64,000 nt of DNA, taken from Aulosira sp. ZfuVER01 (GTDB taxonomy: Bacteria > Cyanobacteriota > Cyanobacteriia > Cyanobacteriales > Nostocaceae). Numbering within the stretch: the first letter of the stretch is position 1; the number at the start of each line of letters is the position of its first letter. Below the pieces are notes generated by a model that saw only the letters and a program-made list of their open reading frames with translations, was not told the origin of the DNA and did no database searches. Positions 16,602 through 34,542 of the stretch are shown here, piece after piece. Where the stretch lies: assembly GCA_034530615.2 (NCBI GenBank), contig JAVRCV020000023.1, forward strand, positions 35,173 to 99,172. The letters are read 5' to 3'. The translations under genes were made by a program, and so were the position numbers.

Positions 16602-19600
16602 ATGCCATCAGTATATTCACAAGCGCAGCTTGGTGAGCAGCTCGCTGTTGTCTTGGGTGAGAACCTAGAAGATGGAGAACTGCAAAGCTGCTTGGCGGCG
16701 ATGGAAATTTTGGAACCGCCGATCGCAAAACAGTTTTGGGAAGCAACAGAGGCAAAGGCAGGAATTTATTTAGTCTTGGTGGGTAAAGTTAGATTGCTGG
16801 ATAGTGGAGAGAACTTAATTACTACTCTCTCCCCAGGAGGATCGTTTGGGGAATTGACATTATTTCCCGAAGCAGGTTTGCAACCATACTCTGCCAGATC
16901 TTCTGTAAACCTCAAGCTGAGTTATCTCAAACAAGAGACATTGGAAGCTTTGATGGGCAAATATCCCATCCGCGATCGCCTTTTCGCCCGTGCAGAACTT
17001 TGGGATTTACTCATGTTGTGTCGCCAGAACGCAATCGCCAAAGGCAATACATCTGTTGAAGATATGCTCAAAGCCTTGTCTTATTTCTCGCGACAGCATC
17101 TAGAAATGGGTGCGATCCCAGCTAAACTAGCCGCAGAAACTCAGTTATGGCTAGTGCGTCAGGGAGAATTACGCCATGCTGATGGTAGCAGATTAATCCC
17201 TGGCAACATCTGTGCTCTCAAACCGGGAAGTTGGCAGGCGACAAAACCCACGATCGCTTACAGTCTTAAACATACCGATTGGCAAACAGCACTGCAACAT
17301 TGGCGACAATTGGCAGAATTGATTGATTCCCCAGCACCCCAAATTCCTGTAGAAAAACCAGCGGTATTTACTAGCACCAGCAATAACGTTATTCCCTTTC
17401 CTTCTCAAACTCAGCCAAAAAAACCGCAAAACAGATCGCGTGCTTACTTTCCTAGTCCAAAATTGCAAATGGGGCATTGGTGGGGACGGATTACCCATTA
17501 TTATCCCTTCTATGCTCAACACAGTGCCTCAGATTGTGGTGCTGCTTGCTTGGTAATGATTGGTCGCTATTGGGGTAAGCATTTTAGCGTCAATCGGCTG
17601 CGGGATATGACCAACGTCGGTCGTAGTGGCGCATCTTTAGCGGCGATCGCCACAGCAGCCGAAAGCCTGGGTTTCGCCACCCGTCCGGTAAAAGCCACCC
17701 TAGATAAATTTGCCGAACAATCTTTACCCGCGATCGCACACTGGGAAGGAAATCACTTTATCGTCGTCTATGAGATCGCGAAAAAGCAAGTAATTGTAGG
17801 CGATCCCGCCCTTGGTCAACGCAAACTTACCCTTAAGGAATTTGCCGCAGGTTGGAGTGGCTATGCATTACTTCTACAACCAACATCTCTACTCAAAGAT
17901 GCTCAGAATCAGGATGTTGGCTTGTGGAAATTTTTTGAGTTGGTTAAACCCCACTATAAAGTCCTGCTGCAAGTCTTTATCGCTTCTGTACTAATTCAGA
18001 TATTTGGATTAGTCACCCCAGTATTTACCCAGTTATTACTCGACCGAGTACTGGTGCAACGCAGCATTGCTACCCTGAACGCCGTTGGTATTGGGATGAT
18101 TGTTTTTGGGTTGTTCAGCATTGCCATGAACGGAGTCAGGACATATTTGCTCAGTCATACTGCCAATCGTATCAGCCTCTCCCTCTTGGTAGGTTTTATC
18201 AAACATACCTTCCGCTTGCCCCTTTCTTATTTTGAATCCCGTTATGTGGGAGATATCGTCTCCCGTATCGAAGAAAACCAGAAAATTCAAAGCTTCTTAA
18301 CAGGTCAAACCTTATCCATCGTGCTAGATATGCTGACGTTAGTTATCTATCTAGCACTGATGTTTTGGTATAGCTGGAAAATGGCACTATTTGTGCTGTG
18401 TACCGTACCACCATTTTTCATTCTGGCGCTGGCTAGCACAGGGATTTTACGCCGCATCTCCAGAGAGATTTTTAATGCTGGGGCTAAAGAAAACAGCTAT
18501 ATTATCGAATCTCTAACAGGAATTCGGACTGTTCGTTCATTGGCAATTGAACAGACTGTGCGTTGGCATTGGGAAGAATTGCTGAATAATTTGATCAAAA
18601 AAGCCTTTAATGCGCAGGTGATTGGGATTCGCCTCTCCATGCTAAGTGGTGCAATCAATACCTTTACCAGTACGGCATTGATGTGGTTTGGAGCATGGCA
18701 AGTCATTCAAGGGGAACTCACCGTTGGTCAATTAGTTGCTTTCAATATGTTGGTGGGTAACGTCTTAGGCCCTTTTCAAAGGTTTTCCCAACTGTGGAAT
18801 CAATTTCAAGAAATCATTATTTCCACAGAACGCATTAATGATGTCCTAGAAGCAGAACCAGAAGAAGACTTGCACAATAAACCCCGCAAGACTTTGGGTA
18901 GACTGCGCGGTCACATTCGCTTCGATCGCGTCACTTTCCGTTATCACCCCGAAAGTAAGACTAACGTCCTAGAAAATATCAATTTTGAAATTCAGCCAGA
19001 GCAAATGGTAGCGTTGGTGGGGCGCAGTGGTTCTGGAAAAACCACCCTGAGCAAGTTAATTTTGGGATTATACCCGCCAACCGATGGCAAAGTGCTAATT
19101 GATGGTTGTGACGTGACTGGTATCTCCTTGCGATCGCTCCGTTCTCAAGTCGGTGTTGTCGATCAAGACACTTTTTTGTTTGGTAGTACAATCCGCGAAA
19201 ACATTACCATAGCCCACCCAGAAGCAACTCTTGACGAAATTATTCAAGCTGCAAAATTAGCCGGAGCAGATGAATTTATCCAGCAACTACCCCTCGGTTA
19301 CGAAACCCAAATCGGTGAAGGTGGGGGAATGCTCTCTGGAGGACAACGCCAACGACTAGCCATAGCCCGTGCTTTGCTAGGAAATCCCCGTTTATTACTG
19401 TTTGACGAAGCCACCAGTCACTTAGACACAGAATCAGAACGGATAATTCAGAACAATCTGAAAACCATTCTCAAAGGGCGCACCAGTGTCATTATTGCGC
19501 ATCGTCTTTCCACAGTTCGTAACGCTGACTTAATCCTTGTTTTAGATCGTGGTGTCTTGGTGGAAAGCGGTACTCATGACGAATTAATCGCTAAACAAGG

Positions 19601-19646
19601 TCATTACTACTATCTGAATCAACAACAACTAGCTCAAGTTAGTTGA
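16602..19646 (+). CDS. C39 peptidase-containing ABC transporter (PCAT) with N-terminal cNMP-like domain
   Basis: SFGEL cNMP-like motif; QHSASDCGAAC (Cys), HWEGNHFIV (His), VGDP (Asp); TM domain; GRSGSGKT, LSGGQRQR, DEATSHLD. Confidence 0.95.
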   Translation: MPSVYSQAQLGEQLAVVLGENLEDGELQSCLAAMEILEPPIAKQFWEATEAKAGIYLVLVGKVRLLDSGENLITTLSPGGSFGELTLFPEAGLQPYSARSSVNLKLSYLKQETLEALMGKYPIRDRLFARAELWDLLMLCRQNAIAKGNTSVEDMLKALSYFSRQHLEMGAIPAKLAAETQLWLVRQGELRHADGSRLIPGNICALKPGSWQATKPTIAYSLKHTDWQTALQHWRQLAELIDSPAPQIPVEKPAVFTSTSNNVIPFPSQTQPKKPQNRSRAYFPSPKLQMGHWWGRITHYYPFYAQHSASDCGAACLVMIGRYWGKHFSVNRLRDMTNVGRSGASLAAIATAAESLGFATRPVKATLDKFAEQSLPAIAHWEGNHFIVVYEIAKKQVIVGDPALGQRKLTLKEFAAGWSGYALLLQPTSLLKDAQNQDVGLWKFFELVKPHYKVLLQVFIASVLIQIFGLVTPVFTQLLLDRVLVQRSIATLNAVGIGMIVFGLFSIAMNGVRTYLLSHTANRISLSLLVGFIKHTFRLPLSYFESRYVGDIVSRIEENQKIQSFLTGQTLSIVLDMLTLVIYLALMFWYSWKMALFVLCTVPPFFILALASTGILRRISREIFNAGAKENSYIIESLTGIRTVRSLAIEQTVRWHWEELLNNLIKKAFNAQVIGIRLSMLSGAINTFTSTALMWFGAWQVIQGELTVGQLVAFNMLVGNVLGPFQRFSQLWNQFQEIIISTERINDVLEAEPEEDLHNKPRKTLGRLRGHIRFDRVTFRYHPESKTNVLENINFEIQPEQMVALVGRSGSGKTTLSKLILGLYPPTDGKVLIDGCDVTGISLRSLRSQVGVVDQDTFLFGSTIRENITIAHPEATLDEIIQAAKLAGADEFIQQLPLGYETQIGEGGGMLSGGQRQRLAIARALLGNPRLLLFDEATSHLDTESERIIQNNLKTILKGRTSVIIAHRLSTVRNADLILVLDRGVLVESGTHDELIAKQGHYYYLNQQQLAQVS

Positions 19647-19704
19647 GGAGAAGAGGACATCCTCTACTCTCCACCTGTATCTACCATTTTTGGGATGTAG
19701 AACT

Positions 19705-21252
19705 ATGCCATATCCATACACCAATTCCTCATCCGCACTGGCTAAAGAGGAGCAGGATGAGTATATAAGCTACAGAAATAATTCTGAATTTACTGAAGTT
19801 GCCGAACCGAACGCAGATAATACTAACGATTTGCACTACAGCACAGAAGAACTATTAGATGCCTTACCTCGGGTTTGGACTCAAGGTGTATTTTATACCT
19901 TAGTAGGTTTTGCTATTCTCGCTTTACCTTGGGCAACCCTTGCCAAGGTAGACGAGACAGGAAGCGCTAGAGGACGGATAGAACCTCAAGGTGCAACCCA
20001 AAAATTGGACTCCCAAGTTGGTGGGAGTGTAAAGCTTGTCAAGGTTAAAGAAGGTGATACTGTCGCAGAGGGACAGGTTTTACTAGAACTTGAGTCTGAT
20101 GTCTTGCAGACAAACCTTCAGCAAGCTGAGGCCAAGCTTTCTGGATTGTTAAATCAAAGGGCGCAGTTGGATGTACTGAAAAACCAAGTAAAGTTAACCC
20201 TTAGCACTCAAGAACAACAAAACCAATCCCAAGCCTTGGAGAAACTCTCTCAAGTTAACCAAGCTAAACAAAACCTGGATGCGAAACAGAGTGCTTATAA
20301 CTTACAAAAGTTAGAAAAACAAGCATTAGTCAATCAGGTACAGCAACAAGTTAATTCCTCTGGGAATGACCAAAAAGCGGCTGAAAGTCGTTTGAAGATA
20401 GACTCTAGACAAGTCCAACGCTTTAGTCAACTCCTGAAAGATGGTGCTGTTTCTGCAACTCAAATTGACGAACTAATAAAACAAGAACAAGAAAGTAAAC
20501 GACTTTACGAAAAGGCGAAATCTGACATTAAACAAGGCAAATGGCGTTTAACTGAAGAACAAAGCCGCTATCAGGCGACGATGAACCAGTTACAAGCTGA
20601 TATTGAGCAAGCTAAATTGCGACTGCAAGAAGAACAAAATAGCTATCAAAGCTTACTGCAAACTGGTAAATTGGCAGTTCTAAAAAACCAGCAACAACTC
20701 AAAGATATAGAAACACAAATTGCCGGATTGCGATCGCAAGTTCTCCAAGCCAGAAGCGAAATCACATCCTTAAAGATACAGTTACAGCAGAGAATAGTGC
20801 GATCGCCTGTAGATGGTACTCTTTTTGAATTTCCGATCGGTAAGCCAGGAGCAGTATTACAACCCGGACAAAGAATTGCCCAAGTTGCACCTAGAAATGT
20901 TGGTGTTGTCCTCAAAGCTCAAATGCCAAGTCAAGATAGCGGCTTTTTAAAGGTAGGAATGCCAGTCAAAATCAAATTTGATGCTTATCCTTTCCAAGAG
21001 TATGGCATTACTCAAGGAAAAGTTACTTGGATATCTCCTGACTCCAGGGTACAGCAAACACCCCAAGGCAACATTGAAACCTATGAATTAGAAATCAGCT
21101 TAGAGAAACAATATATCCAAAACGGCGAAAAACGTATTGCCTTAACCGCAGGACAGACAGCCAACGCCGAAGTCATTATTCGTCAGCGTCGGGTAATTGA
21201 TTTTGTCTTAGATCCGTTTAGGAAACTACAAAAAGGCGGTTTAGAAATGTAG
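19705..21252 (+). CDS. HlyD family secretion membrane-fusion protein
   Basis: Single TM, VKEGDTV lipoyl half-motif, long coiled coil, KFDAYPFQEYG. Confidence 0.95.
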   Translation: MPYPYTNSSSALAKEEQDEYISYRNNSEFTEVAEPNADNTNDLHYSTEELLDALPRVWTQGVFYTLVGFAILALPWATLAKVDETGSARGRIEPQGATQKLDSQVGGSVKLVKVKEGDTVAEGQVLLELESDVLQTNLQQAEAKLSGLLNQRAQLDVLKNQVKLTLSTQEQQNQSQALEKLSQVNQAKQNLDAKQSAYNLQKLEKQALVNQVQQQVNSSGNDQKAAESRLKIDSRQVQRFSQLLKDGAVSATQIDELIKQEQESKRLYEKAKSDIKQGKWRLTEEQSRYQATMNQLQADIEQAKLRLQEEQNSYQSLLQTGKLAVLKNQQQLKDIETQIAGLRSQVLQARSEITSLKIQLQQRIVRSPVDGTLFEFPIGKPGAVLQPGQRIAQVAPRNVGVVLKAQMPSQDSGFLKVGMPVKIKFDAYPFQEYGITQGKVTWISPDSRVQQTPQGNIETYELEISLEKQYIQNGEKRIALTAGQTANAEVIIRQRRVIDFVLDPFRKLQKGGLEM

Positions 21253-21321
21253 TGGCGTGCATCAACCACTCGAATACTAAAAATTCCAGTTTTCATCTAC
21301 CAAGTACCCAGGAGCAAGATT

Positions 21322-21519
21322 ATGCATCCAATTGATCTGATGAGAAAATATGGCTGGTCTTACCACAAATTAGCCGCAGAGTTTGGAGTTTCCGAAGCTG
21401 AAGCCAGAAGATGGGGATTTAAAAAAACTGCTAGCAATTACCGCAATCCCCCATCAATGGCTTACAAACTAGCAGACAAAATAGATCGGGAGCTATCAAA
21501 TATTTTGGCATCTGCATAG
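21322..21519 (+). CDS. Small Cro/XRE-like HTH protein
   Basis: WSYHKLAAEFGVSEAEARRW HTH pattern; AGGAG RBS. Confidence 0.7.
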   Translation: MHPIDLMRKYGWSYHKLAAEFGVSEAEARRWGFKKTASNYRNPPSMAYKLADKIDRELSNILASA

Positions 21520-21615
21520 CAAACTTCTCTCACCCGCAATTTTTTCATGCTTGATGGTGTATTGGTTCATCGTCAAAGTTTTGATAAGTTTGTAGTGTTA
21601 AATCAGGGTGACACT

Positions 21616-22419
21616 ATGGGACAAATCATTACACAGGTGGATGCTTTCACCAATACACCATTTGCAGGTAATCCGGCTGCTGTTTGCATTTTACCTGCTC
21701 CCCAAAGCGATCGCTGGATGCAAAATGTAGCGCAGGAGATGAATTTATCGGAGACGGCTTTTCTCGTCAAACAAGATGATGGCTTTAATTTGCGCTGGTT
21801 TACCCCAACGGTGGAAGTACCCCTTTGTGGTCATGCAACCTTAGCTAGCGCCCATGTACTCTGGTCTGAGGCGCATTTGTTACCAGATGAAATTGCCCGT
21901 TTCTATACTAAAAGCGGTGTGTTGATTGCCAAAAAGCAAGTTAACTGGATTGAGTTAGATTTTCCTGTCAATCATTCACAAGCCACTGTTGCACCCCAAG
22001 AACTGAGTCAAGCTTTGGGTGTAGAGTGTAAATCTGTGTTTCAGAATTCCCTCGGCTATTTAGTAGAGGTAGAGTCTGAGGATTTGGTGCGACAAATGCA
22101 GCCCAATTTTCAACAACTGAGAACTTTGCCTGTTCCTGATGTAATTGTTACTAGCGTTGCTAAACCTGATTCTGAGTACGATTTTGTTTCTCGCTTTTTT
22201 GCGCCAGGATTAGGTATTAATGAAGATCCGGTGACTGGTGCGGCTCATTGCTGTCTTGCTCCTTTTTGGCGCGATCGCTTGGGTAAGGATGAGTTCTTGG
22301 CTTATCAAGCATCCAGCCGTGGCGGAGTGGTGAAGGTGCGGTATGCGGGAGGCGATCGCGTCTTTTTAGCCGGACAAGCTGTTACTGTTTTACGCGGGGA
22401 ATTAATTATCAAGCAATAG
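21616..22419 (+). CDS. PhzF family epimerase/isomerase
   Basis: QVDAFT..GNPAAV, SETAF, LCGHATLA, EDPVTGAAH. Confidence 0.9.
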   Translation: MGQIITQVDAFTNTPFAGNPAAVCILPAPQSDRWMQNVAQEMNLSETAFLVKQDDGFNLRWFTPTVEVPLCGHATLASAHVLWSEAHLLPDEIARFYTKSGVLIAKKQVNWIELDFPVNHSQATVAPQELSQALGVECKSVFQNSLGYLVEVESEDLVRQMQPNFQQLRTLPVPDVIVTSVAKPDSEYDFVSRFFAPGLGINEDPVTGAAHCCLAPFWRDRLGKDEFLAYQASSRGGVVKVRYAGGDRVFLAGQAVTVLRGELIIKQ

Positions 22420-22435
22420 ACATCCGATCTGATTT

Positions 22436-23383
22436 GTGAAAAATAATTTTGTTAAACGAACCACGAAGGACACGAAGAGCGCGAGGAATCAGAAAATTAA
22501 TGAGCGCGAAGGCTTGAGTTGTAAAAATACTCAATTGCAATTATTTTATTCTCATGAAAATGGTGAACTCTGGCAGGGAAATGCAATTGAGTGGCTACGT
22601 AATTTAGATACAGAGTCAGTTGATTTAGCGATTGCCGATCCTCCATATAATATCAAAAAAGCCGAGTGGGATACTTTTGAATCTCAAGCAGCTTATGTTG
22701 AATGGTCTTTAGAGTGGATTGAGCAAGTAGCCCGTATTCTTAAACATACGGGAAGTTTTTATATTTGTGGTTTCTCGGAAATATTAGCTGATATAAAATT
22801 ACCTGCTTCTCGTTTTTTTAAAGGGTGTCGTTGGCTCATTTGGCATTACAAGAACAAGGCCAATTTGTCAAATGATTGGGGACGATCCCATGAAAGTATT
22901 TTACATTTCCGCAAATCCAAAAATTTCTATATGGATATAGAAAATGTCAGAATATTATATGGAGAACATACTTTAAAATATCCTTCACATCCACAAGCTA
23001 TTACCAGTCAGTATGGAAGTAATGGCAAGACATGGAATCCCAACTCAAAGGGAGCTAAACCAAGGGATGTGATCGAAATTCCTACAACTTGTAATGGAAT
23101 GCATGAAAAGACTAAACATCCTACACAGAAGCCAGAAGAACTGATAAGAAAATTTATTCTCGCTTCATCCAAACGCCAGGATATTGTCATTGACCCTTTT
23201 TTAGGTTCAGGAACTACAGCTGTAACTGCTGAACAATTAGGCAGAAGATGGTTAGGATGTGATATTAATTCTGACTATTTAGAGTTAGCAGTTCAACGGA
23301 TCAAGAATGCCGATCGCATGAGCGATGAAGAATGGTTTTGGTTCGATAGAAAAAATGAAGAACGGAGAAAAAGAATTAGGTAA
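22436..23383 (+). CDS. DNA amino-methyltransferase, beta class (N6A/N4C); start uncertain
   Basis: DPPY motif IV precedes HPTQKP and DPFLGSGTT motif I. Confidence 0.9.
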   Translation: MKNNFVKRTTKDTKSARNQKINEREGLSCKNTQLQLFYSHENGELWQGNAIEWLRNLDTESVDLAIADPPYNIKKAEWDTFESQAAYVEWSLEWIEQVARILKHTGSFYICGFSEILADIKLPASRFFKGCRWLIWHYKNKANLSNDWGRSHESILHFRKSKNFYMDIENVRILYGEHTLKYPSHPQAITSQYGSNGKTWNPNSKGAKPRDVIEIPTTCNGMHEKTKHPTQKPEELIRKFILASSKRQDIVIDPFLGSGTTAVTAEQLGRRWLGCDINSDYLELAVQRIKNADRMSDEEWFWFDRKNEERRKRIR

Positions 23384-23539
23384 AAAGGCAATCATTGAAG
23401 TAGAAGTAGGGTGTGTTATGCCGAAAGGCTAACGCACCTTGAATTATTTATGCTCTGGTGCGTTACTGCCGTCTGCCTTCAGTAACTAAAATTATTCTGT
23501 TGCACAATAGTTAAAGAAGCCCTTATTTAATTTACAAAA

Positions 23540-23977: not shown

Positions 23978-23987
23978 AAGTCTAATT

Positions 23988-24015: not shown

Positions 24016-24019
24016 TTTT

Positions 24020-24634: not shown

Positions 24635-24888
24635 AGTAGTTATTGGGAGATCTCCGGAACACGACTTGTAGCATTATTGTCTAACGTTCAGTACAAAAAG
24701 CACAGAAAGCTTAATACAAGATTAACGCTCTGTTTCTCAATTTGCCCGTTTTTGAAGTATTAAACAATTCGTAATTATGTTTTGTAACGGGAACTGTTTA
24801 TATAAATCAGGGTATCAATCCCTATTGAATGACGAATTACGAATTACTAATTACGAATTATGATGAAACTTTACTTTATTTGCTGCTT

Positions 24889-26508
24889 ATGAATCAGCCC
24901 AATTGCTTGCAAGCAATTTTATCTTCGTCAAAGAAGGTATCTATGATCCTTTATCGGTTGTTTGTGACTTTGTTAGCCCTAACAATGCTCTGGTGTGGTT
25001 TACTACCAGAAGTCGCTCTAGCTCAGACTCAAACAGCACCTCCTGCTCAAAGAGTGCTGTCACCTAGCAAAACTCCGACTTCGATTCAACCTTATCTGGA
25101 TCGAGTGATTAAGCAGTTGACAGAGTTTCGCTTAGACAATGGTTTGAAGTTCATTGTTTTAGAACGGCATCAAGCACCTGTAGTTTCTTTTCTGACTTAT
25201 GCTGATGTGGGTGGAGTGGATGAGCCAGATGGCAAAACTGGTGTAGCACACTTTCTAGAACATTTAGCTTTCAAAGGTACAAAGCGCATTGGTACAAAAG
25301 ACTACAATGCAGAAAAACCACTGCTAGAAAGACTACAACAGTTAGATGCTCAAATTAAAGCAGCAAAAGCAAGTGGCAAAAAAGATGAAATTGCTAAATT
25401 GCAAGCTGAGTTTGAGCGAGTGGAATTAGAAGCAGCCAAGCTAGTTCAGCAAAATGAAATGGGGCGAATTGTTGAACAAGCTGGAGGCGTGGGTTTAAAT
25501 GCCAATACTTCTACGGAAGCGACTCGTTATTTTTATAGCTTTCCGGCAAATAAGTTGGAACTGTGGATGTCGCTAGAATCAGAGCGATTTCTCGAACCTG
25601 TGTTTCGCGAGTTTTATAAAGAAAAAGAGGTGATTTTAGAAGAACGGCGTTTGCGGGTGGAGAATTCACCCATCGGCTTGATGCTCGAGAAATTTATCGA
25701 TGCGGCTTATAAAGTTCATCCCTACAAGCGTCCGGTGATTGGTTATGACCAAGATATCCGCAACCTCACCCCGGGCGATGTGCAAAAGTTTTTTAACAAT
25801 TATTATGTACCCAGCAATTTAGCGATCGCTATTGTGGGTGATGTTAACCCAACTGAGGTCAAAAGGCTGGCGCAAACCTACTTTGGACGCTTTCCCACAA
25901 AAACAAAAGCTGTTGAGCAAATCTCCACAGAACCGCAACAAAAACAAACACGAGAAGTTACTTTACAGCTACCTTCCCAACCTTGGTATTTAGAAGGTTA
26001 TCACCGTCCAGCAATTACCCATCCAGATAATGCTGTATATGAAATTATTGGCAGTTTATTGAGTAACGGACGCACATCGCGGTTGTATAAATCTTTGGTA
26101 GAAAAGCAGCAGTTAGCCTTGAATGCCCAAGGTTTTAGTGGATTTCCCGGAGATAAATACCCAAATCTGATGCTATTTTATGCGCTCACTGCTCCCGGAC
26201 ATACAGTTGATGAGTTGGCGGTGGCTTTGCGTCAGGAAATTGACAAATTGAAAACTGAGCCTGTAACAGATACGGAATTGCAGCGTGTGAAAACCCAAGC
26301 AAGAGCAGGTTTGTTACGTAGTCTCGATTCCAATATGGGGATGGCGCAGCAATTGTTGGAATATGAGGTGAAAACTGGCTCTTGGCGAAATTTGTTTAAG
26401 CAGTTGGATGAAATTGCGGCAGTGACGACTGCTGATATTCAGCGAGTGGCAAAGGCATCGTTTACAGCAGAAAATCGCACGATTGGCAAGTTGTTGTCTA
26501 AGGGATAA
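24889..26508 (+). CDS. M16B peptidase, catalytic subunit (secreted)
   Basis: HFLEH inverted zinc motif, NANT, EERR; signal-like N-terminus. Confidence 0.9.
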   Translation: MNQPNCLQAILSSSKKVSMILYRLFVTLLALTMLWCGLLPEVALAQTQTAPPAQRVLSPSKTPTSIQPYLDRVIKQLTEFRLDNGLKFIVLERHQAPVVSFLTYADVGGVDEPDGKTGVAHFLEHLAFKGTKRIGTKDYNAEKPLLERLQQLDAQIKAAKASGKKDEIAKLQAEFERVELEAAKLVQQNEMGRIVEQAGGVGLNANTSTEATRYFYSFPANKLELWMSLESERFLEPVFREFYKEKEVILEERRLRVENSPIGLMLEKFIDAAYKVHPYKRPVIGYDQDIRNLTPGDVQKFFNNYYVPSNLAIAIVGDVNPTEVKRLAQTYFGRFPTKTKAVEQISTEPQQKQTREVTLQLPSQPWYLEGYHRPAITHPDNAVYEIIGSLLSNGRTSRLYKSLVEKQQLALNAQGFSGFPGDKYPNLMLFYALTAPGHTVDELAVALRQEIDKLKTEPVTDTELQRVKTQARAGLLRSLDSNMGMAQQLLEYEVKTGSWRNLFKQLDEIAAVTTADIQRVAKASFTAENRTIGKLLSKG

Positions 26509-26548
26509 CGAACCGCTAAGAACGCAAAGGACGCGAAGGGAACAGAGT

Positions 26549-28081
26549 ATGCAGCAGTATCAGAGTAAAAGGCAGATGTTATTCAGAATCCAAAATCCAA
26601 AATCTAAAATCCAAAATCGGCAGAGGCTGATTTATGCTTTGGTTGGTGCTTTTGCCTTTTTACTTTTAACTTTTAATTTTTCTGGTGCAGCGACAGCAGC
26701 AGCCAAGCATTACACTGAGTTGCAATTACCAGCGTTACCAGAGGTGAAGTTACCCAAGTATGAGCGCTTCACACTGCAAAATGGCATGGTTGTCTATTTG
26801 ATGGAAGATCATGAGCTACCGCTCGTAGGTGGTACAGCGTTGGTACGTACTGGAAGTCGCCTGGAACCAGCAGATAAAGTTGGCTTGGCTGAGTTTACAG
26901 GCGAGGTAATGCGGACTGGAGGGACGAAGCAGCATTCGGCTGATGAACTCAACGAAATGTTGGAACAACGGGCTGCTTCGGTGGAAACTGGTATTGGTGA
27001 AACCTCTGGTAGTGCTAGCTTTGAGGCACTGACTGAGGATTTAGACACGGTGTTTGAGCTATTTACTGAAGTGCTACGGGAGCCAGTATTTGCTCAAGAA
27101 AAGTTGGATTTAGCCAAGACGCAGGAGAAGGGTAGTATTGCCCGTCGCAATGATAATCCCAATTCTATAGCTGGTCGAGAATTTCGTAAATTAATCTATG
27201 GGAAAGATAGCCCCTATGCTCGCACAACAGAATATGCTTCTGTAGAAAATATTTCCCGTGCAGATTTAATCAAGTTTTATCAGCAATATTTCTACCCCAA
27301 TAATATAATTTTGGGGATTTTGGGAGATTTTGATGCGAAGAAAATGCGATCGCTCATTCAAGCTAAGTTAGGCGATTGGCAACCGAACCCCAAACTGGCT
27401 AAACTCCCATTACCACAAGTTTCCCAAGCCAAAGCTGGCGGTGTGTTTTTTGTTAATCAACCGCAATTGACTCAAAGTAATATTTACATTGGGCATTTAG
27501 GCGGAAAATTCGACAATCCCGATTATGCAGCCTTGGATGTGTTGAATGGCGTGTTAAATGGATTTGGCGGACGCTTGTTTAATGAAGTGCGATCGCGTCA
27601 AGGTTTAGCTTATTCAGTATACGGTCAATGGAGTCCCCGCTACGATTATCCCGGAATGTTCATTGCTGGAGGACAAACGCGATCGCAAACTACTGTGCAG
27701 TTTGTCAAAGCCTTACAAGCTGAAATTAAGCGCATCCAAACTCAAAGAGTTACAGCCAAAGAACTAGCTTTTGCTAAAGAATCTACACTAAATTCCTTTG
27801 TTTTCAATTTTGAAGACCCTAACCAAACTATCTCACGGTTGATGCGATACGAATATTACGGCTATCCTGCTGATTTCTTATTTCGCTATCAAAAAGCCGT
27901 AGCAGCTACAACAGCAGCTGATGTCCAGCGAGTAGCAAAACAATACCTCAAACCAGAAAATATCGTAACTCTGGTTGTCGGAAATCAAACAGCAATTCAA
28001 CCACCTTTGACACAGCTAGCAACACAGGTAACGCCCATAGATGTGACTATTCCCCCTGCACAACCACAGGCAAAAAATTAA
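26549..28081 (+). CDS. M16B peptidase, non-catalytic partner subunit
   Basis: M16 fold motifs (RLFNEVRSRQGLAY); no HxxEH; signal peptide. Confidence 0.85.
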   Translation: MQQYQSKRQMLFRIQNPKSKIQNRQRLIYALVGAFAFLLLTFNFSGAATAAAKHYTELQLPALPEVKLPKYERFTLQNGMVVYLMEDHELPLVGGTALVRTGSRLEPADKVGLAEFTGEVMRTGGTKQHSADELNEMLEQRAASVETGIGETSGSASFEALTEDLDTVFELFTEVLREPVFAQEKLDLAKTQEKGSIARRNDNPNSIAGREFRKLIYGKDSPYARTTEYASVENISRADLIKFYQQYFYPNNIILGILGDFDAKKMRSLIQAKLGDWQPNPKLAKLPLPQVSQAKAGGVFFVNQPQLTQSNIYIGHLGGKFDNPDYAALDVLNGVLNGFGGRLFNEVRSRQGLAYSVYGQWSPRYDYPGMFIAGGQTRSQTTVQFVKALQAEIKRIQTQRVTAKELAFAKESTLNSFVFNFEDPNQTISRLMRYEYYGYPADFLFRYQKAVAATTAADVQRVAKQYLKPENIVTLVVGNQTAIQPPLTQLATQVTPIDVTIPPAQPQAKN

Positions 28082-28536
28082 TTTCTATAACTTTTCTCTA
28101 AACAGTTGTAGTCAAATTATCTGTAGAGACGCCATAAAATGCGTCTCTATTTTTTATTGATTTACATTTTGATGAAGATGTAATAGCAATTCTCTAAAAT
28201 TCAGCAACAGATTCAAACCCTAGAGCCTAGATTCTGTAGTACTTTCATAATTACGAATTACGAATTACGAATTGGTATAACTATCAACCCTTGCAATTCC
28301 ACAAAGAATTCGGCAGTTAGCACATGGGGTTGTCCTGACCTAAGCGACTATGTACTATACAAAAGTCAGCAGATCGAAAAATTCCACGAGCGATCGCAAA
28401 CCTTTTGGTTCTACTGATAATTTAGATCTACTTCCACCTATGTCTTGGAGATTCCCGTCACGTAGACGCGCAGCAGCTTCCCGTAAGGGTAAGCAAAGTG
28501 GCGTTAGCATCTGCGTTAGGAGAAGGAGCTTCACCC

Positions 28537-28582
28537 AAAAAGCACTTGATTGCCCTTCTTCAAGGGGTGGGCAATCAAGCGC
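28537..28582 (-). terminator. Terminator hairpin ending the small-peptide cluster
   Basis: CTTGATTGCCC/GGGCAATCAAG stem followed by TTTTT on the minus strand. Confidence 0.6.
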
Positions 28583-28613
28583 CGACTTTCTGTAAAGTGC
28601 TGACTACAAGCTG

Positions 28614-28946
28614 TTAATGGTTTGGTCGATCAATCGCTGTTATCTTAACAGTCTCATAAGCAGAGTTTGTTCCCTTTCCAGATTTAGTTTTTACCTTGAC
28701 TTTATCAAAGCCTTCGTAGTAATAATCCACATCAGCATAAGGATCGTCACCAATCGCCAGAGCCGTTCCTGTACCCTTTGCTTTTGTAACTTTACCTTTA
28801 GTTTTTAGATCGATGTCTGTATCAGTCAAAGTGTAAGTTGAATCTCCTTTGGCAGATGCGTCGGCAGTTATGGTCAATGACGCGCCACCCAAAATCAACT
28901 CGTTGTCTGAAGTATTCTCTAAATACGACAAGTCTGCAATCTTCAT
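28614..28946 (-). CDS. Double-glycine leader secreted small protein (beta-rich)
   Basis: MKIADLSYLENTSDNELILGG then ASLTITADASAKGDSTYT. Confidence 0.75.
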   Translation of the reverse strand: MKIADLSYLENTSDNELILGGASLTITADASAKGDSTYTLTDTDIDLKTKGKVTKAKGTGTALAIGDDPYADVDYYYEGFDKVKVKTKSGKGTNSAYETVKITAIDRPNH

Positions 28947-29186
28947 AAGAATCAACCTTCTTGTTTTCAATTATTTGATGCTTATCGAGTTCGCTAGAAA
29001 CTTAAGTTTCACAGCCACAATGGAGTGATAACAATTCAAAATTAAGAAAGCCAAATTTAATCTATGTTTTAAGCTTTGCATTTGTTACTTAATTTTGGCG
29101 AATTGGTATGAGTGTTTTAGGACTTATGAAGCACTAAAGTGCTTACTAAGATTTTTCTAAAGGTGAAAGTTCAAAATTTAATTTAC

Positions 29187-29528
29187 TTACTCATAAATTG
29201 AACCACCGTTTTCATGCAAAGCTTTTGTGTAAACTCCACCACCGTTTTCAAACCAAGCTTTCGTGTAAACAGGAGGCTTAGGAGGCTTAGGTAAAGGCTT
29301 GGGCGAAGGTTCGCCGCCACTTTCACTTCCTGGACAAGGAGCAGAGATGCACACTATCTCACCAGGATGATCGTGACCCCCTTCTTCACCTAACGCCAAA
29401 GTAGTAACCTCAGGGGCTTTTCCTCCTCCGATTTCAGCAGCCTCTTCATCTGTTAACTGCTTTCCAACGTCTAGGTTTAAGTCTTCTAGATCGGAAATAT
29501 CCAGAGCAAAAGGATGATTTAGATTCAT
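29187..29528 (-). CDS. Double-glycine leader precursor with TTxxxxEE (plesiocin-like) core repeats
   Basis: LDISDL...EEAAEIGGG leader; VTTLALGEEGG, VYTKAWFENGG, VYTKALHENGG. Confidence 0.75.
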   Translation of the reverse strand: MNLNHPFALDISDLEDLNLDVGKQLTDEEAAEIGGGKAPEVTTLALGEEGGHDHPGEIVCISAPCPGSESGGEPSPKPLPKPPKPPVYTKAWFENGGGVYTKALHENGGSIYE

Positions 29529-29628
29529 AAAAAACTCCTAATTTTTATCAACACTGGAGGGAATCTATCAAGTCTGCAAGACCCTAACGGCTCGCTCTGA
29601 TAGGGTGGAGGTACAAGATATGAGTTAC

Positions 29629-29817
29629 CTAATCAGCGCCAGAAATATTACTAGTACAGGATTTTGAAGAGCTATGAGCAGATGAGATGTTTACACAAAC
29701 ACATTGACTCATCTCATTTTGCTCGTCGCCAGATGCTTTGACAAAATTTTTGGCTTCGGCTAAAATTCTTCCATCCTGTGAAACTATCCATTTAGCTACA
29801 ACTTGATAGCGAGCCAT
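29629..29817 (-). CDS. Small Ser-rich protein, paralogue of 32390-32641
   Basis: MARYQVVAKWIVSQDGRILAEAK aligns with MNYQKMVIKRIVAPDGKVIAESK. Confidence 0.65.
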   Translation of the reverse strand: MARYQVVAKWIVSQDGRILAEAKNFVKASGDEQNEMSQCVCVNISSAHSSSKSCTSNISGAD

Positions 29818-30241
29818 GAGCTTCCTACCTAACACTGTTTATTGGAAAAATTAAACGAGTTAGAGGAAGGACAAAGGAGACTAGGGATAAGGGCTGTCAA
29901 ACACCTTCTATCTATGACCTGATGTTTCAAATGGAAAATGGGAAGTTCTCCCGGGAATTACTAACTTATTTTTGGGAATTTTAATGATGAGCAATTAGTT
30001 TTTAATTGCTCATATTTACTATATAGCTTTTGTGTTTAATAATCAATTTTTTTGAGTTTTTAATTAATGAGTATATTTAATATATTAGAAGCTAAAAAAA
30101 TAGATTTACATCATAGAAATTATAGATACACAAAGAATCTGGATAATAGTTACTAACTTTTATCATCCAGATTTAAAAGGGCTATATTTTATTTTTGAGA
30201 ACGTCGAATGCATCTATAAATTCAGGGCTACTACAGTGAGA

Positions 30242-31987
30242 CTAGGCACTAATCAGGGTTTTTTGAGTTTCATCTTCATTCTGTTTCTGTAGCACTAGAT
30301 CTAAATTAGAATGAGCTGCTGCTAAGTCTGGCTTCATAGAGATAGATTGCTGATAGTAGGCGATCGCAGTTTTGAAATCGCCTATCTGTTGACACTTAAA
30401 GCCTAAATCGTTGTTCAGCGTTGCGTAATAAGCTTGTTTCTCTGGGGAAAGCTTTCCTTGAGCATAAAGTGCATTGGCTCTATTAACCTCAGCTTCAATG
30501 CAGTCAGGCTGTAGCTCCAGTGCTTTTTGATAGCAGGCGATCGCATCTTCCCATTTACCTTGCTGCTGTAGAGCATAGCCCAGGTTATTGTAAGCAGCGA
30601 TCGCTTCTGGCTGTAGAGCTAAGACTTGATTATAGGCTTCTATGGCTTCTGATAACTGATTTTGAGTTTGATATAAGTTCCCCAAGCTAAATAAAGCCTT
30701 GATAGAATTAGGCTGAAGCTGAAGTAGGTTTTTAAATAGATTTTCGGCAGTTCGGTACTCACCTTTTTGTCTCATCAATACCCCTAGCCCATACAGTGCG
30801 TCTGGGTGATTTGATTGAACTTCCAGAATTTGACGGTATCCCTGCTCGGCTTTGGTGAGTCGGTTTGCTCGATGCTCCTGAATAGTCATCTCAAGCGCTA
30901 AAGGAAGATTTCTGACATCGAGTTGTCGATTGTGGCAATTTTTGTACTGAACTGCTATATGCTTAATGTGGCGCTCTTTAGCACCAAACGAATACTTATA
31001 TTCCTCATTTCCTCTTAAAAAATCGTAAACTTTAAATCCATTTTGAATAGCGTATTGGATCGCGTCAGCGTGGAGGATCAGTCCAGGTGGTAGCTCTGTA
31101 AAGGTTTCGTCGCGACCTGTAATGACAAATAGCATGGATCTTTGAGAAACATCAACAAAGTTTGCGATCGCGCCTAAAGGTTTGTCCCCTTTCCAGAGAA
31201 CCGGAAGATACAGACAGTTATTTTCAAAACAATGACGTAAAATAGACCGAAAGTAATTCATGATTACGTCACAGTTATCCCCTTTTTGCTCTCTCCATCT
31301 GGACTCCCAGAAATTAAGTAGTATCTCAATATGAGATTTCAAATTATCTGCATTAACATGGGTGATATAAAACTCATCAGAGCTTTCAATTTTTCTGAAA
31401 AAACGCCTTATTTTTTGGCGAGTATTGGAACCGACGTAGTTTTGCAGATAGTCATCCCAGTCATCTGGTAATGACACATAAGGGGCAATATAGTTATCTG
31501 TATCTTCTCCTGGATTTTGAAGGCGACGTTGACTAAACTTAAAACTATCTTCGGAGAAACTGCTCAAGAATAGAGACATCCGTATATCTGTTTTGAGAAT
31601 ATTTTTTACCTCAAAACTAGACCATACTAACTGCTGTCGGATATAAGCAGCAAAGCTAGGAATTATCTCCTCTTCATAGCCAGGTAGGCAAATAACTCCC
31701 GTGTAATCTGCCATACTGTTTCCTGCCATGCAGATTTCAGTGTCAAACCCACCTCCATCTTGCTGGTTTAATAAAATTTTCAGAGGTAAAAATGCAACAT
31801 AGAATGAATCTTGGGTATTTGCTTTAGCAGCTAATATAAACCACGGTTCCGCTGACATCTGTAACCATCCAAATAGCCAAATCCAAGATAAAAAGAATTG
31901 AGCTTGAGGATCGGCTTCGTATACAGAATCCCAATTTTCTCTTATTTTCTTAAATGTTGCAAAATTATCAATTATGTCAATTTGCAT
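30242..31987 (-). CDS. CelD/BcsL-like GNAT acyltransferase fused to TPR repeats
   Basis: FFLSWIW, ADY, PPGLILH and YDFLRGNEEYKYSFGA GNAT motifs; C-terminal AYNNLG TPRs. Confidence 0.85.
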   Translation of the reverse strand: MQIDIIDNFATFKKIRENWDSVYEADPQAQFFLSWIWLFGWLQMSAEPWFILAAKANTQDSFYVAFLPLKILLNQQDGGGFDTEICMAGNSMADYTGVICLPGYEEEIIPSFAAYIRQQLVWSSFEVKNILKTDIRMSLFLSSFSEDSFKFSQRRLQNPGEDTDNYIAPYVSLPDDWDDYLQNYVGSNTRQKIRRFFRKIESSDEFYITHVNADNLKSHIEILLNFWESRWREQKGDNCDVIMNYFRSILRHCFENNCLYLPVLWKGDKPLGAIANFVDVSQRSMLFVITGRDETFTELPPGLILHADAIQYAIQNGFKVYDFLRGNEEYKYSFGAKERHIKHIAVQYKNCHNRQLDVRNLPLALEMTIQEHRANRLTKAEQGYRQILEVQSNHPDALYGLGVLMRQKGEYRTAENLFKNLLQLQPNSIKALFSLGNLYQTQNQLSEAIEAYNQVLALQPEAIAAYNNLGYALQQQGKWEDAIACYQKALELQPDCIEAEVNRANALYAQGKLSPEKQAYYATLNNDLGFKCQQIGDFKTAIAYYQQSISMKPDLAAAHSNLDLVLQKQNEDETQKTLISA

Positions 31988-32030
31988 CTCATTTTTGCCT
32001 CACAAATAATCTTTCTATCTGGTGAGACTA

Positions 32031-32351
32031 TTAACGGTTGTTGAGATAAAAAGAAGTTGAACTACTACTACTCCGAGATGAAGCAGTTTGGTTTCCAGTT
32101 CTTGCATACGCTTCAGATCTGGCATTGGCTCTACTATAGTCAAGGCTGTCAGTCTTTCTAACAGTTGTCTCCGTTTGAGCATTAGCATAAGTCGTCTCAC
32201 CTACAGCGACTGCACCTGCATCGGCATCAGCATATCCACGCCCAGTTTTTGTTGATGTAACTGTACCAGCGTAAACGCCGCCCATGATAACACTGCTTTC
32301 AGCAATTGGCTGTAAATAACTTAAGTCAGAGATGATTAAGAAATTTCTCAC
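32031..32351 (-). CDS. Double-glycine leader secreted small protein (beta-rich); GTG start inferred
   Basis: LIISDLSYLQPIAESSVIMGG then VYAGTVT...ADADAGAVAVGETTYA. Confidence 0.75.
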   Translation of the reverse strand: MRNFLIISDLSYLQPIAESSVIMGGVYAGTVTSTKTGRGYADADAGAVAVGETTYANAQTETTVRKTDSLDYSRANARSEAYARTGNQTASSRSSSSSTSFYLNNR

Positions 32352-32389
32352 ACCACCTACCTCAGAATAAGTTTTAAAACAACTAATAT

Positions 32390-32641
32390 TCACTCAACTG
32401 AAGACTTGTTAGAAGAACTAGATGTTGATGAACTGCTGCTAGAGCTAGATGATGATGAGAAACTATTAGAACTAGACCTTGCGTAACTGCTGGAACTATT
32501 ACCAGATGAAACTTTTACAGAAACACTTTGGCTGGTTTCACCTTCAGAATCGCCTGATGTTTCGACTACGCTTTTTGATTCAGCAATAACCTTACCATCG
32601 GGAGCGACTATGCGTTTAATCACCATTTTCTGGTAATTCAT
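32390..32641 (-). CDS. Small Ser-rich protein with poly-Ser tail
   Basis: Paralogue of 29629-29817; no GG leader. Confidence 0.7.
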   Translation of the reverse strand: MNYQKMVIKRIVAPDGKVIAESKSVVETSGDSEGETSQSVSVKVSSGNSSSSYARSSSNSFSSSSSSSSSSSTSSSSNKSSVE

Positions 32642-32672
32642 AATTTGAATCTCGATTTTTATTGATGATTAA

Positions 32673-32981
32673 CTAACTCTTAACGCTTGCAAAAGCCGCA
32701 GTATATTCATTACCATTGATACGCCCTTTTGCCCCCCCAAACTTTTCTTTTCCATCTTTACTAGAAATTCTATATCCGCGAATTTCACCATTTTCATTGC
32801 TGAATTCTTCAACTAAGTATTCTGCTTGCTCTGTCTGATTTTTTTTAACAAATCCTGGAATATTGGTTGTTAACAGTCCCAAGATGTCATCGTGCTTTTC
32901 TTCAGCAGTTAAACCGCCTTTAACTTGATTACCACTCACTGCTTCACAAAAGCTGAGGTCGCTAATTTGTAATCCAAGCAT
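32673..32981 (-). CDS. Double-glycine leader secreted small protein
   Basis: MLGLQISDLSFCEAVSGNQVKGG then LTAEE. Confidence 0.75.
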   Translation of the reverse strand: MLGLQISDLSFCEAVSGNQVKGGLTAEEKHDDILGLLTTNIPGFVKKNQTEQAEYLVEEFSNENGEIRGYRISSKDGKEKFGGAKGRINGNEYTAAFASVKS

Positions 32982-33147
32982 ATCAAAACCTTTTTAAATC
33001 TGGTAAAAGCTGAAAGCTTAAAAAAGCTTTCAGCAATTTGTCTAATTTTTTGGAGGAGTTTGTACAATTTTCAGATCTTTATTGACGAGGTGAAAATTGT
33101 ACAAATAATCTTCTTCAAAAAATCCTAGAGAAAGGTACCTAACTTAA

Positions 33148-33435
33148 TTATCTGACAGCACTGGTGCTTGTAGCTGTGGAACCAGAGTATTTGTTTTCTA
33201 TTGCATAAGTAACCGCTTCCGCATCCGAGAAGGTGTCTTTGCCATATGCACTGGCATCAGCATATCCTTGGGCTACATTGCCTTTAACATCAGCCTTGGA
33301 ATCAATTTTGCTATCAACATCAATATCGATTTTGATGTCTTTGTCGAATTTAATGTTTTTACCACCACGACTGCTACCACCACCAAAAATTTCTTCGTTA
33401 GTAGATTCTAAGTAGTTTAGATCGTTGATAATCAT
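33148..33435 (-). CDS. Double-glycine leader secreted small protein (beta-rich)
   Basis: MIINDLNYLESTNEEIFGG then ...KIDIDVDSKID...ADASAYGKDTFSDA; AGGAG RBS. Confidence 0.8.
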   Translation of the reverse strand: MIINDLNYLESTNEEIFGGGSSRGGKNIKFDKDIKIDIDVDSKIDSKADVKGNVAQGYADASAYGKDTFSDAEAVTYAIENKYSGSTATSTSAVR

Positions 33436-33756
33436 TACTTTGCTCCTGAGAATTACTTAATCAGAATTTGGGAATTTTTGCGAGAGCAATTTGCTTTTTT
33501 CTCACATTTATACTTTAAATGATTCACACAAAAAGTCAAGAGCTTTTGCACAACATGGCAATAAGAGTTTTCAATAAAAATTAGTATATTTTCAATTAAT
33601 TGATTAACTAATTTTATCTGATTAATAAAAGCATAAAAATCCGAGCAATGCTTATTTTCTCATTGCTCAGAAAAAATCAAAATATTGTTTTTTATTAATT
33701 TAGCAATGCTTTAATGCATGTTTTCTAAATTAAAAAAATCGAATTTAAACTTAGAT

Positions 33757-34542
33757 TCATGCCTGCTGAAGCAGTTGTTTTTGTGGTTGCAAATTAGTAT
33801 CTAAATATAACTGCATGAGCATTCCCATTCCTTCTACTTGTTGCTTTAACCAATCAGCAAATAATTCCGAAATAATTTTTTCGCGTAATTGCTCATCTAA
33901 TTCTGGTTGAATAATTTCTTCCACCCAAACTAAATACACTCCCTTTGGCGTAGTAATCGGTTTGAGAACCCCAGGTGGAGAACTAGCGAATACAGGCGCA
34001 CCAATCTCTGGGCGAAAATCTTTACGGTATCGAACTCCTTGATATCCATAAGCACGACGAAGTTCTGGCTCTGAGATATATAAACGAGCGATTTCTGGAA
34101 AGGTAATTTCCCTTTCTTCTAGAGCATAAAAAAGTTCCAGAGCTAAGTCCCTATCCTCGAAGGTAACTTCGTAGGTGACAGCAGCATCATAATCTAGTCG
34201 GTTGTCATAAAAGAACTTTCCAACTTGAGCCGCAAATAGATGATTCGCCAACTTTTTAGAAATCAGGCTGTTATAAACTAGTTCTTCAAAATCCTTCACA
34301 GACAGATGATATTTATCTAACCAAGCCCAGGTATCTTTAGCTGTGACAAGTTTTTTATCTAACCTGAGTTTGTCTCCTTCTGACTGTAATTCTGCTTCTG
34401 TCACCTCAATCCCAACTTCCTGAGCCGCTTCGTTAATAATTTTTTGAGACGTAATAGTTTTTATAACATCAGGAATCTGACAAGATAGCTTGAGGCTGTG
34501 TATCAAATCTGAACTAGAGATGGTCGGATGCTCGAACATCAT
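33757..34542 (-). CDS. SurA/PpiC-like peptidyl-prolyl isomerase of PCAT clusters
   Basis: ELQSEGDKLR, LALELFYAL..EITF..IARLY, RPEIGAPVF, KPI..KG.YL pattern. Confidence 0.8.
   Translation of the reverse strand: MMFEHPTISSSDLIHSLKLSCQIPDVIKTITSQKIINEAAQEVGIEVTEAELQSEGDKLRLDKKLVTAKDTWAWLDKYHLSVKDFEELVYNSLISKKLANHLFAAQVGKFFYDNRLDYDAAVTYEVTFEDRDLALELFYALEEREITFPEIARLYISEPELRRAYGYQGVRYRKDFRPEIGAPVFASSPPGVLKPITTPKGVYLVWVEEIIQPELDEQLREKIISELFADWLKQQVEGMGMLMQLYLDTNLQPQKQLLQQA

Follow-up and report, generated by a model that had tools for sequence, protein, structure and literature searches.

The window analysed here, a stretch of 64,000 nucleotides from Aulosira sp. ZfuVER01, contains a double-glycine (GG) peptide export cluster which, judged by its gene content, is of a known kind, namely group II of Wang, Fewer and Sivonen (2011; PMC3140520), and which has been split by a 13-kb inversion. 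The reading we favour, with moderate confidence, is that the PCAT of this cluster cuts and exports four small proteins (A to D) that act together as an extracellular beta-rich structure. It starts from what can be read in the DNA: the genes for transporter, adaptor and PPIase are intact, four leaders belong to one type, A to D are inherited together with a leaderless partner (E), and an inversion has taken place. Neither the system type nor its motif is new, and the split reflects a genome rearrangement; what makes the cluster valuable is its cargo.

The export and accessory genes are the following.

15919..16527, plus strand: HTH protein, IS630/COG3415-like, first gene of the PCAT operon (domain search)
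16602..19646, plus strand: long-type PCAT, cNMP-C39-ABC (Pfam cNMP, C39, ABC_membrane and ABC_tran; Walker motifs intact)
19690..21252, plus strand: HlyD adaptor (TIGR01843 above cut-off)
21322..21519, plus strand: conserved 65-aa ORF without GG, whose usual slot is between hlyD and the PPIase gene
24829..28081, plus strand: pair of M16 peptidases, neighbours inside the inversion (domain search)
33757..34542, minus strand: SurA/PpiC-like PPIase (TIGR04500, E 4e-17, and Rotamase_2, both under cut-off)

The catalytic set of the PCAT is present, Q306, C312, H385 and D401 aligning with C39 structures of PCATs. The end of HlyD and the nearest cargo gene are 7.4 kb apart in convergent orientation, and the sole small ORF adjoining HlyD is the 65-aa ORF; residues and coordinates thus agree with the earlier note, which had described an intact C39 transporter and HlyD about 7 kb away, convergent and with no adjoining substrate. 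Homologs of the 65-aa ORF (77–92% identical) occupy the hlyD-PPIase slot of relatives, and family scans gave no match for it. In relatives, as in both paralogous operons (contigs C17 and C55), the PPIase gene comes after hlyD; the two paralogous operons are also headed by counterparts of the HTH gene.

The window has in common with group II of Wang et al. (PMC3140520) a long CAP_ED PCAT, HlyD, a SurA rotamase (here under the cut-off and syntenic), M16 peptidase, a COG3415 HTH (a group II domain in their Table S2), HetP, and an array of GG precursors of 70–110 aa. As that paper also prints the motif KIXDLXYLEX10GG and the HetP link, the architecture, leader motif and HetP link described in the earlier note were all on record. 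An APH_ChoK-like kinase, listed for group II without being stated as universal, was not found among the 32 window proteins scanned; an LxmK-like kinase fills a comparable site in another genome (G004). In the parts of the paper drawn on here, the motif is placed inside HetP, not as an N-terminal cargo leader, and no conserved A–E set is given; the inversion split is a feature of the window.

Five minus-strand ORFs, starting at 28946, 29528, 32351 (GTG), 32981 and 33435, each directly preceded by a purine-rich stretch, have real GG-ending leaders. Counts for A to C below refer to 20 D-anchored loci, fetched around homologs.

28614..28946, minus strand: cargo D, 21-aa leader, 89-aa mature protein predicted all-beta; 24 of 150 family genomes
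29187..29528, minus strand: putative group-2 graspetide precursor, 36-aa leader, TTLALGEE core; ATP-grasp near homologs
32031..32351, minus strand: cargo B, 25-aa leader, 81-aa mature protein, 31% Ser+Thr; 10/20 loci
32673..32981, minus strand: cargo C, 23-aa leader, 79-aa mature protein; 15/20 loci
33148..33435, minus strand: cargo A, 19-aa leader, 76-aa mature protein, first gene past the PPIase; 16/20 loci

Scoring all 28,862 small ORFs of the genome with a motif published independently (KIxDLxYLE plus GG/GA) placed three cluster ORFs at the top, 28946 (7/7), 33435 (6/7) and 32351 (5/7), and their leader match is not due to chance. The ORF at 32981 scored 4/7, level with 19 other small ORFs, and 29528 scored below 4. 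A regular expression fitted to the cluster leaders matched five times genome-wide, four times in the cluster, and is circular by construction. At −4, all four cargo leaders carry a hydrophobic residue. The distance from motif to GG ranges between 7 and 9 residues, and the Leu-7/Leu-12 spacing of studied PCAT substrates (PMC6363468) is absent from these leaders. The single leader claimed for five ORFs is borne out for four (A to D), whereas that of 29528 differs and is of the canonical PCAT type. Of the proposed shared code for multi-cargo export, it stands that several cargos are likely exported by the window PCAT, but the code covers four proteins and not the leaderless partner.

ORF 29528 is likely a graspetide passenger, a leftover ring-peptide precursor. 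It has a single TTxxxxEE core copy, TTLALGEE, its LDISDL resembles the graspetide enzyme-binding motif, and its homologs have an ATP-grasp gene within ~1.5 kb in 19/25 loci. Its leader ends LTDEEAAEIGGG and aligns weakly (E 0.72) with the PDB chain 'CtA peptide', which places the probable cut behind the third Gly. An ATP-grasp gene is missing between 28946 and 29187, and the only close copy (73% identical) lies on contig C79 at 64462–65367, beside its own precursor; maturation of 29528 would need this enzyme. The best PDB match of the graspetide ATP-grasp is 7DRM (E 3e-28), presumably PsnB. The cassette of G060 holds a 29528 ortholog together with the ATP-grasp enzyme, and the precursor also lies inside the cassette in G147; it was not seen in the cassettes of G005, G010 and G014. 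The RiPP-like precursor that had been counted into the multi-cargo system appears to be a graspetide precursor, as its core indicates, but one that travels as a passenger. Group 2 graspetides such as plesiocin (bioRxiv 2021.03.09.434688, PMC11626197, PMC8939145) likewise show TTxxxxEE, an LFIEDL-like leader motif and a GG site; 29528 differs in having one canonical core plus two TKxxxEN variants, a Pro-rich linker and an enzyme gene outside the cluster. The orphaned precursor may offer a simple test case for in-trans maturation.

Three further genes lie among the cargos.

29629..29817, minus strand: leaderless partner E2, start 29817, paralog of E1; ortholog in G060
30242..31987, minus strand: GNAT-TPR, putative modifier (Acetyltransf_6 and TPR domains)
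32390..32641, minus strand: leaderless partner E1, KRIVxPDGK hairpin motif, Ser-rich tail; 16/20 D-anchored loci

E1 and E2, overlooked in the earlier note, travel with the cassette. The association of the cargos with a SurA/PpiC-like chaperone and a GNAT-TPR was recovered by the domain matches, that of the PPIase being under cut-off. In other loci the comparable place of the GNAT-TPR is filled by TPR-GT41 or GT2 enzymes, and GT41, GT2 and RTX genes occur among the cargos.

By co-occurrence and selection, A to D and the leaderless partner are a conserved set without a family name, which is new here. A–E is complete in 9/20 D-anchored loci. dN/dS was below 1 in 19/20 small-ORF pairs, including all ten that involve the window, with 0.34–0.58 for B and 0.23 for E1; half of the D-anchored loci lack B, which one would hardly expect if B were an obligate subunit. 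The small ORFs matched no NCBIfam or Pfam family. Mature D is predicted to form an all-beta meander of four strands (AF2 pLDDT 95), and neither sequence nor fold searches of the PDB turned up a clear match (best Z 5.5, rmsd 2.9, 61 aligned). This lack of a clear match does not make the D fold new. Mature A alone folded poorly (pLDDT 54); it often occurs in tandem copies (2–4 matches in 6/13 other matching genomes) and is also found outside the family. Only a short AxAxAxGxxT motif is common to A, B and D (hhalign probability 6–16%), and C has no detectable relation to the other three (<1%). P0133 is a single chain in which D and A are fused (hhalign 94% for D, 69% for A); a second such fusion, P0124, has three full-length relatives. 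Support for the A part of the fusion is weak, and low-complexity beta sequences can align through composition.

These properties bear on the bacteriocin role that Wang et al. (PMC3140520) assumed for group II precursors. The cargos might be exported by the window PCAT and act singly as bacteriocin-like toxins or signals, with E and the GNAT-TPR serving immunity or tailoring. GG leaders and PCATs classically serve bacteriocins, cargo content differs among loci, and unrelated RiPP modules (graspetide, Nif11 with radical SAM, kinase type) occupy the same site. However, many genera retain one and the same orthologous set under purifying selection, mature A to D are without Cys and near neutral in charge, and D and A are fused elsewhere; we consider this explanation unlikely.

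The split was traced to two breakpoints.

21522..21594, no strand: left inversion breakpoint (blastn colinearity with G005, G010, G008 and G006 flips)
34684..34805, no strand: right inversion breakpoint (blastn colinearity with relatives)

As colinearity flips at both ends, the split system that the earlier note had treated as an arrangement in itself is, from these alignments, the outcome of an inversion and not a design feature. Misassembly was rejected for the left junction, which the check covered: a single contig spans it in 3/3 possible source runs (X1–X3), which are not independent support since they are possibly the source of the same DNA. A phase-variable or programmed inversion was also dismissed, there being no terminal repeats and no second orientation seen; comparison of the two junctions gave no matching inverted repeat, and contigs of four runs, which drop rare variants, gave no alternative joint at the left junction. 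Loss of an HK gene in the inversion was ruled out because G008 and G006 have a gap of only 0.3–0.6 kb at that place. The M16 pair also adjoins other cargo types in G004, G007 and G009, and the role of dedicated maturases suggested by Wang et al. is open to doubt, since the pair remains with tetR regardless of cargo type.

The right breakpoint lies ~140–260 bp upstream of the PPIase start, and the inversion might have cut the PPIase and cargo genes from their promoter, leaving a silent or decaying relic, the more so as the ATP-grasp, Nif11 precursor and radical SAM genes of G060 are missing here. We regard this as quite unlikely: every remaining ORF is intact, a conserved 58-bp block (34627–34684) remains upstream of the PPIase gene, and G014 was split independently at the same spacer, its halves 28 kb apart in opposite orientation, with intact cargo. 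A promoter and terminator scan remained at shuffle level (22 versus 20.5 ± 4.5). Nor need the split stop export, because the cargos are diffusible proteins.

That the distant PCAT-HlyD pair is cognate to the cargos, as the earlier note had supposed, is supported by both synteny and phylogeny. The synteny search it had proposed found PCAT, HlyD, PPIase and cargo genes co-directional in 14/20 D-anchored loci; of the rest, two show just the PPIase, at the edge, one meets a contig end and three have no visible transporter. The same order occurs in G005, G010, G017, G015, G019 and G060. In a quick ML tree built without the Wang et al. reference proteins, the window PCAT groups with the G005 and G010 cassette PCATs (SH-aLRT 100). 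This group belongs to a clade of 24 rows (SH-aLRT 99), most of them PCATs linked to a cassette, and both own paralogs and the kinase-cargo PCATs fall outside it; one G003 PCAT with a C-like neighbour sits in the kinase-cargo clade. Another PCAT could serve the cargos, since eight further C39 domains with the catalytic Cys are encoded elsewhere in the genome.

Upstream of the PCAT operon lie hetP and two remnants.

11490..11908, plus strand: HetC-like long-PCAT remnant, ~0.4 kb of a 3.1-kb gene (N-terminus comparison)
12942..13199, plus strand: second hlyD remnant, N-terminal part (41% over 61 aa to a HlyD-like ORF)
13488..13877, plus strand: hetP (NF037966, 120.7 bits against a cut-off of 45)

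The first remnant is 62% identical to the N-terminus of the 1045-aa PCAT upstream of hetP in G060 and colinear with a 339-aa truncated form in G008; from position and length we infer that it was HetC itself. The reference for the second is a 333-aa HlyD-like ORF between PCAT and hetP in G019. The window ORF at 12942 is not patC, because patC sits downstream of hetP. In Anabaena PCC 7120 (PMC10986499, PMC4133259), too, a long cNMP-C39 PCAT lacking an intact HlyD lies upstream of hetP; in the window, by contrast, the HetC-like gene survives as a remnant, and the intact PCAT, a paralog, has an HlyD and a PPIase of its own. Conceivably, the window PCAT replaces the decayed gene in heterocyst commitment, processing HetP or exporting a differentiation signal: hetP, the only HetP-family match in the genome, is situated 2.7 kb upstream of the PCAT, with the motif in its interior (KIKDLAYLE), the genome with the HetC-like remnant has two nifH copies, and the HetC substrate is described as unknown (PMC10986499). 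This seems very improbable to us, as HetP has SK in place of the GG (which G060 and G019 retain and G008 and G006 have lost), the HetC-like protein is nearer to the PCATs of C55 (50%) and C17 (47%) than to the window PCAT (41%), HetP-like genes also occur in group II clusters of unicellular Cyanothece, and cargo A reaches beyond the family. The physical tie to hetP asserted earlier is common (hetP is upstream in 6/14 loci with a visible PCAT) but not obligatory, hetP being on another contig in the three closest cassette relatives, G005, G010 and G014.

In the favoured reading of joint export, precursors would be made in the cytoplasm and cut after GG by the C39 domain, and the ABC domain would push the 76–89-aa products through HlyD and an unlinked TolC-type channel, as PCAT biology suggests; two OEP-family genes lie on contig C10. 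More loosely, the SurA-like protein might keep beta-prone chains soluble, the TPR enzyme might modify the cargos, and outside the cell A, likely the major subunit, might co-assemble with B and D into matrix or fibre, a beta-fibre being plausible. The working model is PteB of Synechococcus elongatus, which exports EbfG1–4 with N-termini following GG/GA (PMC4997328), EbfG1–3 forming amyloid (bioRxiv 2022.07.13.498973): one PCAT, several small GG proteins and a biofilm-matrix role. However, the closest Anabaena homologs of PteB are short-type PCAT clusters (54–58%, versus 32% for Alr1927), and the Anabaena candidates have unlike leaders and bodies. NCBIfam and Pfam scans linked none of the cargos to EbfG or CTB proteins; Atlas CTB scores of 0.83 and 0.85 are leads only. 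The CT pilus of Microcystis (PMC12397347) also has a small beta-rich surface subunit beside an O-GlcNAc transferase gene, but the portion of that text used here mentions no ABC transporter or HlyD, unlike the window cluster. Identity of the cargos with CT pilin found no support, no CT pilin being among the PDB search results.

A bolder and rather doubtful proposal is that filamentous cyanobacteria possess an undescribed beta-sheet fibre or sheath, often glycosylated, with A to D and leaderless E as its subunits, and that a dedicated PCAT clade recognising the IxDLxYLE leader exports them; HetP would have begun as regulator or decoy of the export machine, and the heterocyst hetC-hetP module would be its cut-down copy.

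Since 2011 (PMC3140520) the precursors of group II have carried the label 'bacteriocins', and literature searches found no functional tests of them. The conserved cargo set defined here can be deleted and purified. If the cargos build a fibre, they would represent a new matrix component and fold for filamentous cyanobacteria and, because HetP carries the same leader motif, would offer a tangible way of asking which substrate HetC cuts.

The fifth of the cluster's small ORFs stands apart from the other four, and exporter and cargos owe their separation to a rearrangement. The ORFs with their leaders, the PPIase, the GNAT-TPR gene, the PCAT and HlyD were all confirmed in place.

13488..13877, plus strand: hetP
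16602..19646, plus strand: PCAT
19690..21252, plus strand: HlyD
28614..28946, minus strand: cargo D (GG leader)
29187..29528, minus strand: fifth ORF, graspetide precursor
29629-29817 and 32390-32641: leaderless partner ORFs, E
32031..32351, minus strand: cargo B (GG leader)
32673..32981, minus strand: cargo C (GG leader)
33148..33435, minus strand: cargo A (GG leader)
33757..34542, minus strand: PPIase
41459-43187, minus strand: trio of what we take to be small GTPase, roadblock-like and V4R-like genes

The C39 domain of the PCAT retains Q306, C312, H385 and D401, which align with PCAT C39 structures. As a test of the leaders, every small ORF in the genome (28,862 in total) was scored against the independently published KIxDLxYLE plus GG/GA. 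D (7/7), A (6/7) and B (5/7) obtained the best three scores genome-wide, C (4/7) was level with 19 other ORFs, and the fifth ORF remained below 4/7. Judged by these scores, the leaders of A-D are of one type; within this genome it seems confined to the cluster, which contained four of five matches in a pattern search fitted to these leaders themselves. The earlier note had assigned one shared leader to five substrates, which holds for A-D but not for the fifth ORF with its lower motif score and different leader. dN/dS was below 1 in 19 of 20 pairs of small ORFs (1.62 in the remaining pair), and they are under purifying selection.

The TTLALGEE core of the fifth ORF matches the group 2 graspetide motif TTxxxxEE. 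A paralog on another contig (C79:63931-64221) adjoins the gene for a 301-aa ATP-grasp maturase, the top PDB match of which is 7DRM, presumably PsnB. Together they form a complete group-2 graspetide pair (C79:63931-65367; L068:3932-5368), with no transporter seen adjoining. After removal of duplicates and own-genome rows, an ATP-grasp gene was present within about 1.5 kb at 19/25 homolog loci. In the related genome G060, an ortholog (81%) lies inside the same cassette. The genes that follow it there encode an ATP-grasp sharing 73% identity with the C79 enzyme, then a Nif11-like precursor and then a radical SAM protein; all three are absent from the window. Two additional ATP-grasp genes follow 3′ of that cassette (L105:12988-15413), and the site thus gathers several RiPP modules. 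The leader of the fifth ORF terminates in LTDEEAAEIGGG and shares Leu-12 and Ile-4 with the studied PCAT substrates (PMC6363468); the leader segment LFIEDL is bound by the plesiocin enzyme (bioRxiv 2021.03.09.434688, PMC11626197, PMC8939145). The fifth ORF is a passenger of the cassette whose leader is unlike those of A-D.

Gene order in the relatives G005 and G010 is HTH-PCAT-HlyD-PPIase-A-C-E-B-GNAT/TPR-D-radical SAM followed by a reversed M16 pair, and blastn places a single inversion between it and the window, with ends near 21.55 and 34.75 kb. The nearest backbone relatives, G008 and G006 (flanks mostly 85-93% DNA identity), both lack the inversion. For synteny, 20 loci were examined, anchored on the 20 top-ranking usable D homologs of a larger family-genome search. 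PCAT, HlyD, PPIase and cargo were co-directional in 14; two had the PPIase alone at the edge, one reached the contig end, three were without visible transporter, and none showed the convergent arrangement. The split system of the earlier note is correct for the window, where exporter and cargo lie apart and convergent, but in relatives they form a co-directional unit that the inversion separated here. No terminal repeats were found at the inversion ends, and single contigs in three possible source runs span the left junction. G014 carries an independent break in the same spacer, with HlyD 28 kb off on the opposite strand; both rearrangements, mutually independent, break just past the 65-aa ORF at 21322-21519 (77-92% conserved, no known family), which occupies the slot between hlyD and PPIase in many cassettes. 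A 58-bp non-coding block 5′ of the PPIase (34627-34684), conserved in G005, G010 and G014, is a possible promoter or regulatory site. At the right breakpoint, a short stretch (34729-34800) matches unrelated sites of G006 and G001 (78-88%) and is possibly a small mobile repeat.

Group II clusters, as Wang et al. (2011, PMC3140520) describe them, contain a long PCAT, HlyD, SurA, an M16 peptidase, a COG3415 HTH, an adjacent HetP and GG-precursor arrays; every feature listed there bar the APH kinase also occurs in the window, and KIXDLXYLEX10GG is in print there as a motif inside HetP. Since their Table S3 has many unclassified group II precursors, with no sequences in the portion covered, orthologs of the window cargos may already be among its entries. 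No functional test of such precursors turned up in searches of an open-access library. The genome itself has two paralogous HTH-PCAT-HlyD-PPIase operons (C55:78479-94155 and C17:333-13269), near which lie Nif11-like plus radical SAM, kinase-type and long-leader GG precursors with leaders longer than, and different from, the A-D type.

The single hetP of the genome stands 3′ of remnants of a HetC-like PCAT and a second hlyD. Its product has KIKDLAYLE with SK in place of GG; G060 and G019 both keep an intact GG. The proposed tie to the hetP locus applies here and in 6 of the 14 D-anchored loci with visible PCAT, where hetP lies upstream, but not in G005, G010 and G014, where it is on a separate contig; the association is old but loose. 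In four genomes of another family, no more than about 1.5 kb lies between hetP and cargo A, and in three of them hetP directly follows hlyD. In this genome, which has two nifH copies, only a remnant of the HetC-like gene is left (11490-13199), and in G008 and G006 the gene is truncated (339-349 aa); heterocyst differentiation may proceed without HetC in this lineage.

A quick ML tree covering 37 PCATs groups the window PCAT with those of G005/G010 (support 100), inside a clade of 24 rows (99) whose transporters are mostly cassette-linked. The window is mosaic: identity of its hlyD is 86% with G005 vs 72% with G008, which has a kinase-type cargo at the corresponding site, suggesting that transporter and cargo were swapped in as one.

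Among the 20 D-anchored loci, A was present in 16, C in 15, B in 10, E in 16 and the complete A-E set in nine; D occurs in 24/150 family genomes and A, often as tandem copies, in 13/200 phylum genomes. A-E matched no Pfam or NCBIfam family. Mature D is predicted as an all-beta meander of four strands (pLDDT 95) without clear match in the PDB, and the Atlas located this fold in a cluster of 265 aa, mostly proteobacterial (TM 0.75); mature A modelled alone gave a poor fold prediction. A short AxAxAxGxxT motif is the only sequence feature common to A, B and D, C being unrelated. In P0124 (187 aa) and P0133 (190 aa), an A-like domain comes after a D-like one, which hints at contact between D and A; both proteins, like P0140-P0142, are D+A fusions of about 190 aa without IxDL leader. 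At other loci, the cargos are interspersed with TPR-GT41, GT2 and RTX genes (10 proteins scanned). That A-E are beta-sheet fibre or sheath subunits, with HetP a former regulator or decoy of their PCAT export, is as one claim rather doubtful. The locus is a rearranged cluster of known type that contains a single, orphaned graspetide precursor alongside a conserved candidate cargo set. The conservation of that set, the D fold, the fusions and the GT/RTX neighbours, together with the precedent of EbfG, small GG proteins exported by PteB with a biofilm-matrix role (PMC4997328, bioRxiv 2022.07.13.498973), would favour an extracellular structural role for this set.
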